NCBI GenBank assembly: GCA_947085185.1
Contig: CAMTVK010000007.1
Location: 1-64,000, forward strand
Direction: 5' to 3'
Source of the DNA: Candidatus Fraserbacteria bacterium
GTDB taxonomy: Bacteria; Bipolaricaulota; Bipolaricaulia; RBG-16-55-9; DRXL01
DNA: 64,000 nt
In this document: positions 2,971-58,230 of the stretch, piece by piece
Layout: the number at the start of each line of letters is the position of its first letter
Numbering within the stretch: the first letter of the stretch is position 1
Notes under the pieces: model-generated
Database searches by the model: none
The model's input: only the letters and a program-made list of their open reading frames with translations
What the model was told of the DNA's origin: nothing
Made by a program: the position numbers and the translations under genes

Positions 2971-3015
2971 CCCCCTCACCCTTGACGCCCCTCTCCCTCG
3001 AGAGGGGCTGGGGTG
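2971..3015. repeat. REP-like intergenic palindrome (CCCTCACCC...CCCTCTCCC...GAGAGGGG type)
   Basis: Sequence ccccctcacccttgacgcccctctccctcgagaggggctggggtg: inner gcccctctc/gagaggggc stem and outer tcaccc/gggtga arms. Confidence 0.6.
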
Positions 3016-3076
3016 ATGATGAATCGGTCTGTATTCTAACTGAAATTGAGAGAGCGGGGCAAACGTGCCCAGCATC

Positions 3077-8431: not shown

Positions 8432-9403
8432 ATGCCGCAGATGACGCTTGTGCAGGCGATCAACGATGCGCTCAAGACCGAGATGCGCCGCGACCCAACG
8501 GTCATCGTGATGGGCGAAGACGTTGGGGTCAACGGCGGGGTCTTCCGCGCCACTGAAGGGCTTTATCAAGAGTTTGGGCCCGATCGCGCAATTGATACGC
8601 CGTTGGCCGAATCGGGGATTGTGGGAACAGCAATTGGAATGGCGCTCAACGGCCTCAAGCCCGTGGCGGAGATCCAGTTCGACGGGTTTATGCCCCCGGC
8701 ATTTGATCAGATCGTTTCGCACGCGGCGCGGATTCGCTGGCGCTCCCGCGGGCGATTCCACGTGCCTATAGTCATCCGTGTGCCCTACGGCGGCGGGATT
8801 CGCGCGCTCGAGCACCACTCCGAAGCCCCGGAAGCGTATTATGTGCACACCCCGGGCTTAAAAGTCGTCATCCCGTCGAACCCCTACGATGCCAAAGGGC
8901 TGCTCATCGCGGCTATCAGAGACCCCGATCCCGTGATATTCTTTGAGCCCAAGCGCTTATATCGTGCATTTCGCCAAGAGGTCCCCGAAGGCGATTACAC
9001 GGTGCCCCTCGGCAAAGCGAGCATTGTGCGCGAGGGCTCCGACGTCACGGTGATCTCTTGGGGGGCGATGGTGCGCGTCTGTCTGCACGCGATAGAGTCT
9101 CTGGAGAACGTCAGCGTCGAGCTCATAGACCTGCGCACGCTCAAGCCCTTAGACCTCGAGACAGTGCTGAATTCTGTGGCCAAGACCGGACGCGCTGTGA
9201 TCGTCCAAGAGGCGCCGCGCACGTGCAGTTTGAGCTCAGAGCTGACCGCGCTCATCAACGAACGGCTGCTCTTACAGCTGCAAGCTCCAGTCGTGCGCGT
9301 GACCGGATACGACGTGCACATGCCCTATCTGACGATGGAGCAGTACTATCTGCCCGACGCTGGGCGCGTGAAGAAGGGCATCGAAAGGGTGTTGAGTTTC
9401 TGA
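8432..9403 (+). CDS. pdhB: 2-oxoacid dehydrogenase E1 beta, copy 2 (RALEHHSE loop)
   Basis: Full-length paralogue of the upstream gene with the same motifs. Confidence 0.93.
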   Translation: MPQMTLVQAINDALKTEMRRDPTVIVMGEDVGVNGGVFRATEGLYQEFGPDRAIDTPLAESGIVGTAIGMALNGLKPVAEIQFDGFMPPAFDQIVSHAARIRWRSRGRFHVPIVIRVPYGGGIRALEHHSEAPEAYYVHTPGLKVVIPSNPYDAKGLLIAAIRDPDPVIFFEPKRLYRAFRQEVPEGDYTVPLGKASIVREGSDVTVISWGAMVRVCLHAIESLENVSVELIDLRTLKPLDLETVLNSVAKTGRAVIVQEAPRTCSLSSELTALINERLLLQLQAPVVRVTGYDVHMPYLTMEQYYLPDAGRVKKGIERVLSF

Positions 9404-9464
9404 ATCACGGAGAACACAGCACGGAATACACGGGAAACGGCTTTCTCCGTGTCTTCTGTGATTC
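9402..9464. repeat. Intergenic palindromic repeat (GAATCACGGAG...TGATTC family), copy 1
   Basis: Arms gaatcacggag and ttctgtgattc with internal cacgg units; related copy at 23819-23889. Confidence 0.65.
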
Positions 9465-9486
9465 TACTTTAGGGAGTTGATCGCCT

Positions 9487-23710: not shown

Positions 23711-23818
23711 GCTCCTTTGTGAGTGTTGTCGCCCATATTGTAAGAAAGAGTCTATCCCAAAACGATAGCAGCAAGAAGAAAAAAACCTTCCAGAAAGATG
23801 GAAATTTTATGGAAGATA

Positions 23819-23889
23819 GAATCACGGAGCCCACGGAAAGGCTCTCAGCTCTGTGCCTTCCGTGGATTATTCAGTGCTTTCCGTGATTC
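23819..23889. repeat. Intergenic palindromic repeat (GAATCACGGAG...TGATTC family), copy 2
   Basis: Outer arms gaatcacgga/tccgtgattc and inner ccacggaa/ttccgtgg. Confidence 0.65.
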
Positions 23890-23899
23890 AAAGGCTCAG

Positions 23900-52375: not shown

Positions 52376-52439
52376 ATCTTAGGGGGCTTGGGCGACTTAA
52401 GCCATGATGTCGGTCATCACTATTATTGATCAAAATCAA
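52376..52439 (-). promoter_or_regulatory. Promoter with tandem FNR/Crp-family boxes
   Basis: Perfect TTGAT-CAAA-ATCAA at 52426-52439; degenerate ATGAT-GTCG-GTCAT at 52404-52417; -10 TAAGAT at 52381-52376. Confidence 0.7.
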
Positions 52440-52465
52440 ACGGGACGGCCTGGGGGGCCGTCCCG
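52432..52465 (-). terminator. Intrinsic terminator after the small protein and its structured 3' region
   Basis: 10 bp stem cgggacggcc/ggccgtcccg followed by tttgatttt on the minus strand. Confidence 0.7.
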
Positions 52466-52559
52466 CGGGAAAGGGGGTTCCGACCTGATAGGAATCCCTA
52501 TCAGGTCGCTTCCAGGGATGAGGTAGGGATAATGACGCTCACGCTCCCTGGATCAATCT

Positions 52560-52849: not shown

Positions 52850-54157
52850 TTACCGCCACAGATTCTGCTCTTCTCCAGGGCCCACAGAGATCATCGAGAT
52901 GGGGATGCCGAGCTCATCTTCGATGAGCTGCACGTAGTGTTGGGCTGCTTTGGGGAGCTCGGAGAACTCTCGGCAATCCGAGAGCGGTTCCTCCCAGCCA
53001 GGCACTCGTTCGTAGATGGGCTCGCACTCTTGGAGGATCTCACAGACGGTGGGGAAGTCGTGCAGGACGCTCCCGTGATAGCGATAGCGGGTCGCTATAG
53101 GGATCTCAGCGAAGCCGCTGAGCACGTCGAGCTTGGTGAGGGCCAGCTCCGTGAAGCCGTTGACCATAGTAGCATAGCGCAGGGCGACGAGATCGAGCCA
53201 GCCGCAGCGGCGCGGCCGCCCTGTGGTCGTGCCGAACTCATGCCCTTGGACGCGCAAGCGCTCCCCAGCGCCGTCAAGCGCCTCCGTGGGAAACGGCCCA
53301 TAGCCCACTCGGGTCGTATACGCCTTGGCCACTCCAATCACCCGACCGACTCGCTGCGGCGGCACCCCAGCCCCAGTCCCAATCCCGCCAATAGTCGGCG
53401 TCGAAGACGTCACATACGGATACGTCCCCAGGTCGAGATCGAGTAAAGTCGCTTGAGCCCCTTCAAAGATTATATATTTATTCTGATCCAGAGCGTCGTT
53501 GAGCAAGCGCACGGTGTCTACAATGCGATCCCGAAAGCTCTCGGAGAGCCGCAGCACGTCTTCGGCGAGCGCATCGGCGCGCAGGCGCACAAGCTCAGGC
53601 TGATCGGGCCAAAGTCTCTGATAGCGCTCCAAGACAGCCGCGAGTCTTTCCGCAAATCTCTGGGGGAAGAGCAAGTCCGACATTCTCAGTCCGATGCGGG
53701 CAGCCTTATCACGATAAGCTGGGCCGATTCCCTTGGCGGTCGTATCGAGGGCCGTCTGGGAGCCCTCGAGTCTCTCAACAATGGGATGATAGGGCAGAAG
53801 GAGATGCGCGTTGGAGCTGATAGAGATCTGGGGCTCGCTGCCGCGCAGCTCACGGAGCGCATTGAGCTCTTGGACGAGCGCGTAAGGGTCAATGACCATG
53901 CCGTGGGCCAAGACCCCAGCACAGCCCTCATGGAGCGCTCCGGAGGGGATCAAATGAAACTTAAACTCTTGCGCTGTCTGGTCGCTTTCTGCTCCTGCTC
54001 CGACCGTCAGGGGGACGCGGCTGGCAACCACACGATGTCCGGCATTGGTACCCCCGTTGAAACGCACACAATAGTCGGCGCCTCTGCAAAGCACATGGAC
54101 GATCTTGCCCTTGCCCTCATCGCCCCATTGAGCGCCCAAGACAGCTACAGCTGGCAT
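52850..54157 (-). CDS. purA: Adenylosuccinate synthetase
   Basis: QWGDEGKGK, GIGPAY, EGAQ and GTTTGRPRRCGW. Confidence 0.96.
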   Translation of the reverse strand: MPAVAVLGAQWGDEGKGKIVHVLCRGADYCVRFNGGTNAGHRVVASRVPLTVGAGAESDQTAQEFKFHLIPSGALHEGCAGVLAHGMVIDPYALVQELNALRELRGSEPQISISSNAHLLLPYHPIVERLEGSQTALDTTAKGIGPAYRDKAARIGLRMSDLLFPQRFAERLAAVLERYQRLWPDQPELVRLRADALAEDVLRLSESFRDRIVDTVRLLNDALDQNKYIIFEGAQATLLDLDLGTYPYVTSSTPTIGGIGTGAGVPPQRVGRVIGVAKAYTTRVGYGPFPTEALDGAGERLRVQGHEFGTTTGRPRRCGWLDLVALRYATMVNGFTELALTKLDVLSGFAEIPIATRYRYHGSVLHDFPTVCEILQECEPIYERVPGWEEPLSDCREFSELPKAAQHYVQLIEDELGIPISMISVGPGEEQNLWR

Positions 54158-54912
54158 AGCATCACGTCCTCACTGGCGAGCTCGCGCACGCCCTCTGGAG
54201 TGCGCACGACCAGTGTACCCGATCGCCCTAGCCCAAGCACCTTGGCTTCTATCTTGCTCTTTGTGTCCGTCAGGATCGCGATGCGCTTGGGAAGCACCGA
54301 GAGCTCTTGCCAATATGTACGGACAAAATCGAATCCCTCTGAGAGAAATCGCTCGTAGCTCTGCGCCATGGCCCATAAAGCTATCTCAAAGAACTCCCCG
54401 AGAGAGACGGGCTTGCCCAACTCACGAGCCAGGGATGTCGCTGGGATGCGCGTCTCTTTGGGCAGCTCGTTATTGACGTTGACGCCAATCCCGGCGATGA
54501 GCCACTCAATCGTGTGGGCACGGCTGCTCAGCTCGAGCAAAATTCCCCCAAGCTTGTGATACTTCACCCCGGCCCCGCCAAGGGAGAGGGAATGGGGGTG
54601 AGGTACATACAGATCGTTGGGCCACTTGACGCCCACGCCCAGCCCCCAGCGCTCTCTCAGCGCTTGCGCCAGCGAGACCGCGATGAGCATCGCGATACAA
54701 CTGGCTTGCTCAACTGGGATCGGCGGCCTCAAGAGGATCGAGAACCATGCGCCACCCCACGATGACGTCCAGCTGCGCCCCCAGCGGCCCTTCCCGGCTG
54801 TCTGCTCGCGCGCGATGATCACCGTCCCTTCGGGAGCTCCAGAGCATGCCAGCTCTCTCAGATATTCATTGGTCGAGCCCAGCTTGGGAAATATCTCAAT
54901 CTGATAGGTCAT
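54145..54912 (-). CDS. birA: Biotin protein ligase, class I (no HTH)
   Basis: STN, QTAGKGRWGRSW, KWPND, KLGGIL and GIGVN. Confidence 0.93.
   Translation of the reverse strand: MTYQIEIFPKLGSTNEYLRELACSGAPEGTVIIAREQTAGKGRWGRSWTSSWGGAWFSILLRPPIPVEQASCIAMLIAVSLAQALRERWGLGVGVKWPNDLYVPHPHSLSLGGAGVKYHKLGGILLELSSRAHTIEWLIAGIGVNVNNELPKETRIPATSLARELGKPVSLGEFFEIALWAMAQSYERFLSEGFDFVRTYWQELSVLPKRIAILTDTKSKIEAKVLGLGRSGTLVVRTPEGVRELASEDVMLCQL
54562..54603. repeat. Palindromic element in frame inside birA
   Basis: 42 bp with arms cttcacccc/ggggtgagg and a gggagaggg core; encodes PHPHSLSLGGAGVK. Confidence 0.75.
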
Positions 54913-57900
54913 CGTGTGCGCACCAGGCCGATCTTGGCGGGATGGCCATTGACATCGAGTTCCTTAGTGAACTCGACCCTCTCAAAAGAGCTGTTGCGCT
55001 GCAGCGTGACTGCCAGGGTCTCTTCTTGAATGGCCTTCGCAGACCGCTCGATCGCTGCCTGAAGTTCTTGGTCAGCCTCGTAGTAGAGCTCAATGCGATC
55101 GGAGACTTCAAAGCCCGCTTCTTTTCGGCTCTCTTGCACAAGTCTGATGAACTCCCGCATCAAGCCCTCTTGGCGCAGCTCATCGTCAATCTGGGTGTTG
55201 ATCAAGACCTTCACGTCGCCCTCAGCGCCTTCAGCAAAGCCCTCGCGCGGAACAAGCACGACGCGCACATGCGTACCCTCGACAAGCTCGATCTCCTGGC
55301 CTTCTACGGCCAGGCGCAGCCTCTTTTGGGCTTTCAGCTCCCCTGCAAGCTGCACACGCTTGTCATGATCAGCCCCGTTCAGCTCCTCTAGGACAGCCAG
55401 AGCTTTAGGGGCTAAACCGCGAAGATCCTTCCCCAGCGCAGACTTCTCGTATGCAAACTTGGGAGTATAGAACGCATACAGCTTCTCTTCGGTGATCCAT
55501 TCGAGCTTCTTCACGTTCAACTCCCGCTTAATTAAATCCAGATAGGCTTGTTCAAGTGGCGGTCTTCTCTCAAGCACGATAGCGCCAGACAGCGGCTGTC
55601 GGACCTTGATCTGCACTCTATTGCGCGCTTGCAGGCCTGCCGTGACGATCTGCCGCGCCCGCTCCATCTGCCTTTCAAGTTCCGTATCGCGCAGGGACTC
55701 GTTCACCGACGGCCACTCGCACAGATGGACGCTCTCGGGCATCTCTTCTGTCTTTAAATTCTGATAGATCGCCTCGGCCAAGAAGGGCACAAACGGCGCA
55801 AGCAGCTTGGCAAAATCTACCAAGATTTCGTAGAGCGTCATGTACGCGGAAGTCTTATCAGCGTTCCACCCACTGCCCCAAAAGCGTGCCCGAGAATTCC
55901 GCACGTACCAATTGCTGAGGTCGTCCACGAACGTCTTGATTGCTCCTGTAGCCGCGACAGGGTCGTACTCGTCCAGCGCTTTTGTAGTCACGCTCACCGT
56001 GTGAGAAAAGCGCGAAAGAATCCAGCGATCAAGCAAAGCGCGCTCTGACAGACTCTGTCGCGCGGGATCAAAATCATCTATCTTCGCGTAGAGCGCGAAG
56101 AAGTTATAGACATTGCGCACGGTCTCCAAGACCCCGCGCGCTTCGACGACTTCCTTGGGATCAAGCCGCCGGTCACGCCACGGCGCGCTCCCCGCATAGA
56201 AGAACCAGCGCACGGCATCCGCGCCGTAGACGTTCACCACATCCCAAGGGTCGAGCACGTTGCCCAAGCTCTTGGACATCTTCTTGCCCGATTCGTCCAA
56301 GCCCATCCCCGTCACCACCACGTGCTTATACGGATGGGGATAGGGATGCTCTTCGTAAAGCAGCGTGCTTGTGACTAAGAGCGAGTAGAACCAGCCGCGC
56401 GTCTGGTCAATCCCTTCGGCAATGAAATCTGCAGGGAACTGCTCTGCAAAGAGCTCTTGGTTTTCGAAGGGGTAATGCCATTGGGCAGTGTGCATCATCC
56501 CCGAATCGAACCAACAGTCAATGACATAGGGGACGCGGCGCATCGTGCCGCCACACGAACACTTCAAGAGCACATCGTCAATCCAAGGACGATGAAACTC
56601 GACGGAGCGCGCGCGCTCCCCCTCGACAGCTAAGTCCACAAGCTCTTGGCGGCTCCCAATACAATGCTCTCTGCGACACTGCTCGCACACCCATAAGGGC
56701 AAGGGCGTCCCCCAGTAGCGGTCGCGCGAGAGCGCCCAGTCTTTCATAGTCTCTAAGAAATTACCAAAGCGCCCATCGCGAAAGTGCTCCGGATGCCAGC
56801 GAATCTGTTTGTTGTTCTCGATGATCTGCTTCTGTTTGGCGGTCGTCTTGATGAAGTACGAATCCAAAGCATAGTAGAGCAGCGGGGTCTTGCAGCGCCA
56901 ACAGAACGGATAATCGTGCTCGTACCTCCCAGACTTATAGAGCACCCCACGTTGCTTGAGATCTTGGATGATGAGGGCGTCGGCGTCTTTGACAAACTTC
57001 CCTGCAGCCAATGGGAATTCTTCGGTGAACTTCCCTTCTAAGTCCACAGGGTTGACGAAGGGCAGCCCTTCAGCCTGTCCAAGTTGATAGTCCTCCTCGC
57101 CGAACGCCGGCGCAATATGCACAATGCCCGTGCCTTCTTTGAGTGAGACAAAATCTGCCGCGACGACGCGATAAGCTCTAGGGTCGTTGCTCAGTCTATA
57201 AGCGGGTTCGTAGCGCCAGCCCACAAGCTCTGCCCCGCGCATCGTGCCGACGATCTGAGGAGTGTGCTTCCCCAAGATGGGCTCGACAAGTTCTTGGGCG
57301 AGAATGAAGATCTCTTCGCCGACTTTGGCCAGAGCATACGTATAGTCGGGGCCGACAGCCAGCGCGACGTTGCTGGGCACCGTCCAGGGGGTCGTCGTCC
57401 AGACAAGAAACCAGACTTCGTCTGGACTATTCGCCGTGCCGCCTTCGGCGGCACGATGTACAGTCCAGGCGAAGCCTGGCCAGCCTCTGGCCGGCGAAGA
57501 TGAATGGTCTAGGCGGAGCCTAGCCTGGAGTTTGAGGAAGATGGACGGGTCTTTGACGGTCTCGTAGCCTTGAGCAACTTCGTGGGAGCTGAGAGGCGTG
57601 CCGCAGCGTGGGCAGTAGGGCAGAACTTTATGCCCTTTATACAGCAAGCCCTTCTCCCAGATCCTCTTGAGCGCCCACCATACCGACTCAATATAGTCGT
57701 TGGTGTACGTGATATATGCGTTCTCTTGGTCGTACCAGAAGCCCATTCTGGGGTCGAAGGCGATCCAGTCGTTCTTATACTTCCAGACGTTTTCCTTGCA
57801 TTTTCTCACGAAGTTTTCGACCCCAAACGCCTCGATCTCGCGCTTGCTGTTGAGCCCGAGCTCTTTCTCCACTTTGAGCTCGACGGGCAGGCCGTGGGTA

Positions 57901-58163
57901 TCCCAGCCCCCCTTCTTGATGACATGATACCCTTGCATCAGCTTGTATCTGGGGAAGAGATCTTTATAGACGCGCGGGATGAGATGCCCGAAGTGGGGCT
58001 TATCGTTGGCGGTGGGCGGGCCCTCGTAGAAGACGAAGCGCTTCTTTTCTCTGTGTGGTTCGTTGCGACTCAGGCTCTTTTGGGGAATGATGGCCTGCTC
58101 CCAAAACTGCAGCACGGCTTCTTCGAGCGCCAGGGGGTCTTTGAGCTTCTCGTATTTGGGCAT
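54909..58163 (-). CDS. ileS: Isoleucine--tRNA ligase, type 2
   Basis: HFGH, GWDTHGLP, WTTTPW, DQTRGWF, KMSKS and a long IleRS2-type C-terminus. Confidence 0.96.
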   Translation of the reverse strand: MPKYEKLKDPLALEEAVLQFWEQAIIPQKSLSRNEPHREKKRFVFYEGPPTANDKPHFGHLIPRVYKDLFPRYKLMQGYHVIKKGGWDTHGLPVELKVEKELGLNSKREIEAFGVENFVRKCKENVWKYKNDWIAFDPRMGFWYDQENAYITYTNDYIESVWWALKRIWEKGLLYKGHKVLPYCPRCGTPLSSHEVAQGYETVKDPSIFLKLQARLRLDHSSSPARGWPGFAWTVHRAAEGGTANSPDEVWFLVWTTTPWTVPSNVALAVGPDYTYALAKVGEEIFILAQELVEPILGKHTPQIVGTMRGAELVGWRYEPAYRLSNDPRAYRVVAADFVSLKEGTGIVHIAPAFGEEDYQLGQAEGLPFVNPVDLEGKFTEEFPLAAGKFVKDADALIIQDLKQRGVLYKSGRYEHDYPFCWRCKTPLLYYALDSYFIKTTAKQKQIIENNKQIRWHPEHFRDGRFGNFLETMKDWALSRDRYWGTPLPLWVCEQCRREHCIGSRQELVDLAVEGERARSVEFHRPWIDDVLLKCSCGGTMRRVPYVIDCWFDSGMMHTAQWHYPFENQELFAEQFPADFIAEGIDQTRGWFYSLLVTSTLLYEEHPYPHPYKHVVVTGMGLDESGKKMSKSLGNVLDPWDVVNVYGADAVRWFFYAGSAPWRDRRLDPKEVVEARGVLETVRNVYNFFALYAKIDDFDPARQSLSERALLDRWILSRFSHTVSVTTKALDEYDPVAATGAIKTFVDDLSNWYVRNSRARFWGSGWNADKTSAYMTLYEILVDFAKLLAPFVPFLAEAIYQNLKTEEMPESVHLCEWPSVNESLRDTELERQMERARQIVTAGLQARNRVQIKVRQPLSGAIVLERRPPLEQAYLDLIKRELNVKKLEWITEEKLYAFYTPKFAYEKSALGKDLRGLAPKALAVLEELNGADHDKRVQLAGELKAQKRLRLAVEGQEIELVEGTHVRVVLVPREGFAEGAEGDVKVLINTQIDDELRQEGLMREFIRLVQESRKEAGFEVSDRIELYYEADQELQAAIERSAKAIQEETLAVTLQRNSSFERVEFTKELDVNGHPAKIGLVRTR
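57422..57523. repeat. Multi-hairpin palindromic element in frame inside ileS
   Basis: Four short inverted repeats plus imperfect outer arms within 102 bp, coinciding with an extra peptide before WTTTPW. Confidence 0.75.
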
Positions 58164-58230
58164 AGCGCAGGCCACCTCCAGTTGACAGTTCTGAGTGAGT
58201 CAGTTTCACACTGACGAACTGACCAAGGGA

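Follow-up and report, generated by a model that had tools for sequence, protein, structure and literature searches.

We analysed a stretch of 64,000 nucleotides (contig C7, positions 1 to 64000; the window) from the 1.72-Mb genome of a Candidatus Fraserbacteria bacterium (G000) and found that two adjoining housekeeping genes, ileS and birA, carry in-frame inserts which, by sequence comparison, derive from two unrelated families of repeats, A and B. G-numbers denote genomes of relatives and L-numbers the individual loci compared. The genes and inserts at the locus are as follows.

52850..54157, minus strand: purA (adenylosuccinate synthetase), single match in the genome
53972..54025, minus strand: extended PurA loop, family-wide, not palindromic in G000
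54145..54912, minus strand: birA (biotin-protein ligase), single match in the genome
54560..54605, no strand assigned: family B remnant in birA, 46 bp, net +13 amino acids (aa), with the left end of a DUF559 element (27/31 identical) fused to its right tip (13/14)
54909..58163, minus strand: ileS, the only full IleRS match in the genome, with the HFGH, WTTTPWT, GTGIVHIAPAFGEED and KMSKS motifs intact
57411..57479, no strand assigned: family A element, full 69-bp copy, with three triloop hairpins (6 bp at each of the two ends, 9 bp in the centre) within a 33-bp imperfect inverted repeat, in frame in IleRS
57480..57528, no strand assigned: second family A copy, truncated, of a 73-bp subtype, abutting the first

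The sequence-only reading of this DNA had described three co-transcribed genes, each with an extra peptide near a conserved motif. The extra peptide was found in all three; the gene calls overlap at their ends, all on the minus strand, and it is from these overlaps alone that co-transcription is suggested.

Inserts in ileS and birA derive from two repeat families

The IleRS spacing from SxHE to WTTTPWT+5 is 75 aa in G000 vs 44-47 aa in 14 of the 23 orthologues parsed (23 of 30 loci covered the site); the remaining orthologues are one with an unrelated 51-aa loop and eight with repeat-derived sequence. We found that the insert is 118 bp long (57411-57528), is in frame and adds a net 30 aa. It encodes IleRS residues 213-251 (39 aa), which replace about nine native residues directly before FLVWTTTPWT, and its site corresponds to the interval between residues 209 and 223 of Thermus thermophilus IleRS, at the start of the CP1 editing domain. 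The insert is strongly palindromic, with 33-bp arms and fold z-scores of -6.6 (RNA) and -7.9 (DNA). The IleRS of G006 has a second, separate in-frame A insert near residue 705 (L012:1877-1945).

Both inserts had been called clearly palindromic and frame-preserving, which is borne out for ileS but overstates the palindrome of birA. BirA gains its 13 aa (residues 104-116) between KWPNDLY and KLGG, at a site that is empty in 20 of 24 genomes, and the self-complementarity of the inserted DNA is weak (an 11-bp outer inverted repeat with one mismatch; fold z of -0.86 for the mRNA strand, -3.2 for the other strand and -0.3 with DNA parameters). The insert matches a profile made solely from element ends (E 0.002), and its repeat origin is established by homology, not by symmetry. 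The birA alleles of G002 and G006 have the same junctions and are longer and more symmetric; that of G015 is a separate insertion of another subtype and consists of a left end and a right end without the gene. A single-sequence model of BirA was uninformative (predicted local distance difference test, pLDDT, 39), and the alignment-based model was used instead; its core is confident (mean pLDDT 89.9), insert residues 108-114 score below 50, and the insert is predicted to extend a β-hairpin between two strands, just before the KLGG lysine. A second B-type site lies in the BirA C-terminal domain of G010, G015 and G016.

The purA loop is old and only occasionally colonised

PurA carries 15 aa more after NAGH than solved structures do. 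Its loop measures 25-38 aa in all 14 members of the family and 17-25 aa in eight of 10 others from the order, vs 11 in the short form. As a palindrome, the purA insert of G000 was rejected (fold z of +0.84, then 0.0 and -0.2; no symmetry), and the loop matched none of seven repeat profiles. In relatives, a palindrome of family C occupies the loop in G004 (z -4.0), and G012 and G021 reach -2.4. The loop keeps VGA, and the VGANG of G012 and G016 (L068, L070) resembles a translated variant of the GTAG repeat that is present in the lineage, all differences falling at saturated third positions; that VGANG is a very old domesticated GTAG-repeat insert is conceivable, though the odds are against it. 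On these comparisons, the PurA loop is an old permissive loop that is occasionally colonised and not a recent insert. Hence, the alternative that the earlier reading had itself named, an ancient loop with neither symmetry nor a match to dispersed repeats, describes purA, apart from the weak VGANG hint and the C insert of G004, and does not describe ileS or birA. The proposed repeat-driven insertion of in-frame peptides into surface loops is supported for these two genes, as well as genome- and genus-wide, but not for purA in G000.

The same loops change occupant within one genus

Filled and empty orthologous alleles were found for ileS, birA, purL and argS. The IleRS loop holds A in G000, G007 and G008, B in G012, G016, G003 and G006, C in G004 and native sequence in the rest, so that the sisters G006 and G007 (support 1.0) differ in occupant. 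The PurL linker of 14 genomes holds A in six, B in five, D in G000, F in G016 and native sequence in G014; the ArgRS loop of 14 genomes holds A in five (one with a nested B), B in one, C in one and native sequence in seven. Alleles at one site may also be nested, flipped or duplicated. By alignment, three to four unrelated families, or no repeat at all, are found from congener to congener in one and the same loop of IleRS, PurL and ArgRS, the family labels of the shortest remnants being assigned by eye. On a five-gene FastTree tree, the minimum number of changes is six for IleRS, seven for PurL, four for ArgRS and four for BirA; vs shuffled labels, only ArgRS needs fewer changes (P 0.03). These alignments suggest that the loops contain likely mobile elements that are probably translated and are repeatedly replaced.

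An orthologue alignment of the kind that the sequence-only reading had proposed was run for G000 vs G009, with indels ranked by folding (1.46 Mb of the latter in this comparison, 1.58 Mb in the profile scan below). The 1,092 orthologue pairs yielded 96 indels of at least 7 aa, and the 11 best-folding were all A or B by eye; the birA remnant ranked low (z -0.8). Profile scanning, with genes of both genomes called by our own gene model, gave in-gene clusters of four A, seven B and one D (besides two D in RAYT genes) in G000, and of five A, 13 B and one E in G009; only some of the B matches were compared with orthologues. Families C, E and F, which have fewer open frames, had no copies inside G000 genes. 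Reversed-genome controls gave 0-1 matches per profile.

Family A is lineage-restricted and keeps its frame in genes

Family A has 12 sites in G000: seven beside tRNA genes, one at another intergenic position and four in frame in genes, namely ileS, argS, recO and that of a thiamine pyrophosphate (TPP)-binding oxidoreductase subunit. Of the other genomes of the same family, 16 of 17 contained it, and the class outside the family (166 genomes) yielded none (17/184 class genomes including G000). When GTDB genomes were searched with an exact pattern for the ileS repeat, 53 stretches matched; 47 are titled Bipolaricaulota, Bipolaricaulia or Acetothermia, three Fraserbacteria and three uncultured Thermotogae, these being depositor labels of metagenome-assembled genomes. 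In relatives, A also lies at one or two positions in or at RNase P RNA and within a 23S rRNA gene (L342, L351, L369, L319, L340, L356).

Full-length A copies with enough flank numbered 101, and all 23 that lie between matches to one gene keep the reading frame and have no stop. A is read in at least four frames and on both strands, and one site may carry it in opposite orientations in two species. The non-coding copies, which are not independent, have 5.25 (G000) and 4.5 (G009) of six frames open vs 3.5 in shuffles.

Three short triloop hairpins, as a model for the 27 aligned copies, are 98.9% paired and show one compensatory change, which seven copies inherited. A long fold-back as the conserved structure was rejected in favour of the three hairpins, with 86.5% paired and a score below its shuffles. 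The central triloop is R-N-A on one strand in 62/62 copies, in seven different words, and the terminal triloops are R-N-A in 231/231 and 173/174 (orthologous copies counted throughout). GNA and ANA triloops are stable in DNA. Since the R-N-A triloop type is kept and such loops are DNA-stable, A may be recognised as single-stranded DNA.

At tRNA 3' ends, A has two exact starting points, one that supplies the CCA and one right after it, and 20 of 22 copies begin at one or the other. We found no target-site duplication for A; 80 of 111 distinct flank pairs lack a direct repeat vs 78.9 expected. In several loci, A lies between left and right B ends, where the DUF559 gene would lie.

Family B matches the ends of a DUF559 element

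Family B occupies 20 sites in G000, seven of them in called genes, and 37 in G009, 13 of them in called genes (profile scan). The sequence-only reading had suggested looking for a mobilising nuclease, and for B there is a candidate. In relatives, DUF559 genes that stand alone have GC-rich hairpins on either side and form units of mostly 450-505 bp (about 470 bp). Of the 19 DUF559 loci with the highest scores, several being orthologous sites, 17 have a BoxC-like motif in one flank or both (both in nine), vs 3 in 3,000 random windows; the test covers these top scorers only. DUF559 is homologous to PF04480 and to the 'endonuclease-like protein' of PDB 3HRL, and this homology makes its protein a candidate for cutting or moving B ends.

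Gene-less forms of the element were also found. Two loci (L163, L179) carry internally deleted DUF559 elements, and at three element sites G000 has nothing or just a remnant. In G012, the ileS insert consists of a left end and a right end without the gene, and it is identical at 38/38 positions to the right end of G012's own DUF559 element. No target-site duplication was consistent across 15 B elements. These structures suggest that B likely moves as a gene-less, internal-deletion derivative of the DUF559 element.

Some B copies fit the published TMECO/BoxC consensus. Three B copies of G000 and both flanks of the DUF559 locus L154 match it strictly, and most others do so loosely (G009: no strict and 38 loose matches); the birA remnant is too collapsed to fit. 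Five of 32 matching DUF559 records from other phyla were fetched, and three (Synechocystis, Azospirillum and Deinococcus) have B-like hairpins on both sides. In the Escherichia coli record, a strict TMECO/BoxC motif lies downstream of the gene, at a distance of about 185 bases, and a partial hairpin lies at the gene end (L535:908-944), and the Sinorhizobium record has weak B profile matches only. Our literature search, whose coverage lacked most subscription journals, returned no paper linking DUF559 with palindromes or BoxC and none on such repeats in Bipolaricaulota.

Other hairpin families flank other small genes

Read directly from the flanks, C repeats flank four-helix-bundle genes in four of five genomes searched, and E repeats flank a GxxExxY nuclease-fold gene in G004 and a truncated one in G013. 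The C variant of G012 matches, by eye, G012's own ArgRS and PurL inserts. A four-helix-bundle (PF05635) gene with C flanks sits between tRNA-Ile and tRNA-Ala in three genomes (L378, L375, L376) and is truncated in G000 (C21:13250-13610). Family D is a GTAG-type repetitive extragenic palindromic (REP) repeat; it lies inside and beside genes for REP-associated tyrosine transposases (RAYTs) and occupies purL of G000. At two places in G000, C1:139800-143100 (L132) and C7:113870-119450 (L133), there is an alternation of family E repeats with small genes (toxin-antitoxin, Uma2 and DUF433) that resembles a cassette array.

The claim of at least three intergenic palindrome families in the window was confirmed with B, E and a C-like palindrome, yet family A has no intergenic copy there. 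The intergenic hairpins are the following.

2973..3021, no strand assigned: intergenic family B copy (profile scan)
9400..9465, no strand assigned: intergenic family E copy (profile scan)
23818..23892, no strand assigned: intergenic family E copy (profile scan)
52437-52510: two adjacent hairpins in the intergenic gap downstream of purA, with no other copy in G000
58180..58226: C-like (AGTT/AACT) imperfect palindrome between the putative ileS promoter and ribosome-binding site, just upstream of the latter, scoring under the C profile threshold and absent in three relatives checked (G007, G012, G016)

No partner gene of family A was found

The search for a mobilising nuclease found no partner gene for A. 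Among 18 family genomes, the only GIY-YIG genes were UvrC and one standalone gene with a different repeat, and none of 16 additional GIY-YIG loci in the phylum had A next to it. RAYT flanks showed GTAG repeats only. Orphan frames beside A (66 genome and 136 metagenome loci), inspected by eye and with no Pfam scan made, included no recognisable recurrent nuclease, and a plasmid search with A gave no real match. Elsewhere in the class, outside this family, some four-helix-bundle-like genes contain GIY-YIG genes that have short inverted ends of their own (L385, L394, L398 of G181; L383, L391, L392), and other GIY-YIG genes of this set are fused in frame inside larger proteins.

Discussion

We consider it probable that the A and B inserts are in-frame copies of two dispersed hairpin repeats, which would move as gene-less derivatives and be translated as surface loops. 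Families B, C, D and E each flank a small gene of their own (DUF559, four-helix bundle, RAYT and GxxExxY, respectively), and a nick or cut by such a small protein would be followed by copy-in through recombination, a route that we take as the most likely from the absence of target-site duplication and the replacement of a few native codons. Selection would then keep only in-frame, stop-free copies, in tolerant places, namely surface loops, tRNA spacers, and RNase P and rRNA helices. Because copies would erode by three-base steps, flip, duplicate, nest or be overwritten by another family, a few permissive loops would change occupant repeatedly within one genus.

Several points weigh against this account. 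Mobility, translation, neutrality and enzyme-assisted copy-in are all deduced from sequence. The family in ileS, A, is the one for which no partner gene was found, and G000 has no intact standalone DUF559 or GxxExxY element that we could find, its four-helix-bundle gene being truncated. The four of the 11 lower-scoring fetched DUF559 loci that were viewed showed no repeats. Element ends are about equally conserved between species and within one genome, and hence repeat identity does not date the insertions. Some tree nodes are weak (0.1-0.45), and the labels of short remnants were given by eye. The G002 purL (L277, C184) is not intact, its 5' half running, at an A copy, into the end of a different gene, through either misassembly or repeat-mediated rearrangement. 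Lastly, insertion into existing hairpins is preferred about twofold (13/87 vs 7.8%), which was too weak to adopt insertion into existing hairpin loops as a general rule.

The alternative that survives best, although we regard it as improbable, needs no dedicated enzyme: hairpins would stall or break replication, host repair would copy palindrome over palindrome by gene conversion via short shared junction words, and the small genes would only have seeded the families long ago. Host repair would accommodate the lack of target-site duplication, the replaced native codons, the nested, flipped and duplicated alleles at one site, the missing partner of A and the lack of intact B, C and E parents in G000; BoxC/TMECO sites are also unstable in E. 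coli, according to the available text of PMC4666352. What speaks for recognition by a protein instead is the precision of A, both in the two exact CCA positions at which its tRNA-end copies start and in the strict conservation of its stems and triloop type across species.

HUH enzymes leave no target duplication. A second and distinctly less probable alternative is that resident RAYTs, which belong to this group and are the only apparently full-length candidate genes found in G000, move all families in trans as single-stranded hairpins; the lack of target duplication and the DNA-type triloops of A would fit. Yet the flanks of RAYT genes carry GTAG repeats and not A or B, no RAYT was found in three of five A-rich genomes searched (those three being 61-92% complete), and B, C and E each flank a different gene.

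The sequence-only reading had left room for removal at the RNA level, in which inserts would leave the transcript like intervening sequences, or ribosomes would bypass them, with the enzymes unmodified. The ileS insert does form a very stable predicted RNA hairpin (-74 kcal/mol over 141 nucleotides), and A is present in the RNase P RNA and 23S rRNA of relatives. We nevertheless hold removal to be very unlikely, because all 23 intragenic full-length A copies are in frame without stops and the eroded ileS and birA alleles that have lost the hairpin remain in frame; the confinement of C, E and F, with fewer open frames, to places outside the genes of G000 argues the same way. The inserts are probably translated rather than removed. 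Least probable of all is that the loops are adaptive, selection having favoured the hairpin peptides, or mRNA pauses, for purposes such as folding or regulation. Repeated occupation of the same loops and a possibly domesticated GTAG-repeat peptide in the PurA VGA motif speak for it, but sister species differ in the family, strand, frame and peptide of the occupant, and many congeners are empty.

Translated copies of hairpin repeats at changing loops have partial counterparts elsewhere. Rickettsia palindromic elements (RPEs; Ogata 2000, 2002, as summarised in the reviews PMC10969869 and PMC3184786) are dispersed, lie between genes and in frame in housekeeping genes, and measure about 105-150 bp. 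The repeats described here are likewise dispersed and palindromic and occur both between genes and in frame in protein genes. Unlike RPEs as those reviews present them, the units here are shorter (46-118 bp), A does not encode one conserved peptide but is read on both strands in several frames, a single loop sees unrelated families replace one another, and four families have visible gene-bearing parents.

In-frame REPs of 20-30 aa have been described in many species, including in tRNA synthetases (PMC3733652); in the accessible part of that paper, they lie in genes of one functional class at different sites, except for recB of two Xanthomonas species. As with GTAG/CGTC REPs and their RAYTs, family D has the GTAG tag and the RAYT association and sits in the PurL loop of G000; A and B, unlike those REPs, have no GTAG tag and do not flank RAYT genes, whose flanks carry D only. 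One site is reused by several families here, unlike the intragenic REPs in the accessible part of PMC3733652, whose Additional file 3 list may bear on site reuse.

PMC4666352 describes BoxC/PIT/TMECO triplex repeats as lying, in E. coli MG1655, between genes in every case and as having no link to mobile elements. B ends share their consensus at the level of sequence, but B is often coding (in G000 and G009 alike) and brackets DUF559 genes. Prokaryotic MITEs (miniature transposable elements with inverted repeats), which PMC10969869 describes in the part available as short, non-autonomous and ending in terminal inverted repeats, share such termini with the present families, and B resembles an internal-deletion derivative of a gene-bearing element; unlike DDE-type MITEs as so described, A has no target-site duplication, B has no consistent one, and the parent genes are not DDE transposases. 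The frame-independence of an intron or intervening sequence was not seen. The basic phenomenon is known and works like RPEs and intragenic REPs; the stronger result is the turnover of families in the same loops.

The question of where coding palindromes such as RPEs come from and how they move is an old one. For one family, the natural series is now visible, from gene-bearing parent through internal deletion, gene-less copy, in-frame insert and eroded remnant to empty site, and DUF559 offers a small, expressible candidate enzyme with defined hairpin substrates, which makes the question testable. Loops of essential single-copy enzymes, beside the IleRS editing motif and the active-site lysine of BirA, repeatedly accept unrelated inserts of 6-39 residues. 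More tentatively, and with somewhat less than an even chance, we propose that the genus hosts transposase-free mini-elements, each a small nuclease-fold or helical-bundle gene between hairpin ends (DUF559 with BoxC-like ends, GxxExxY, four-helix bundle), whose gene-less derivatives would insert without target duplication and would compete for, and overwrite one another in, the same loops; A would join them, with tRNA CCA ends as its precise target and some enzyme that moves it as single-stranded DNA. If that is true, the long-unexplained BoxC repeat would have its mobiliser named, and the insertion-tolerant loops of essential enzymes would have a natural map.

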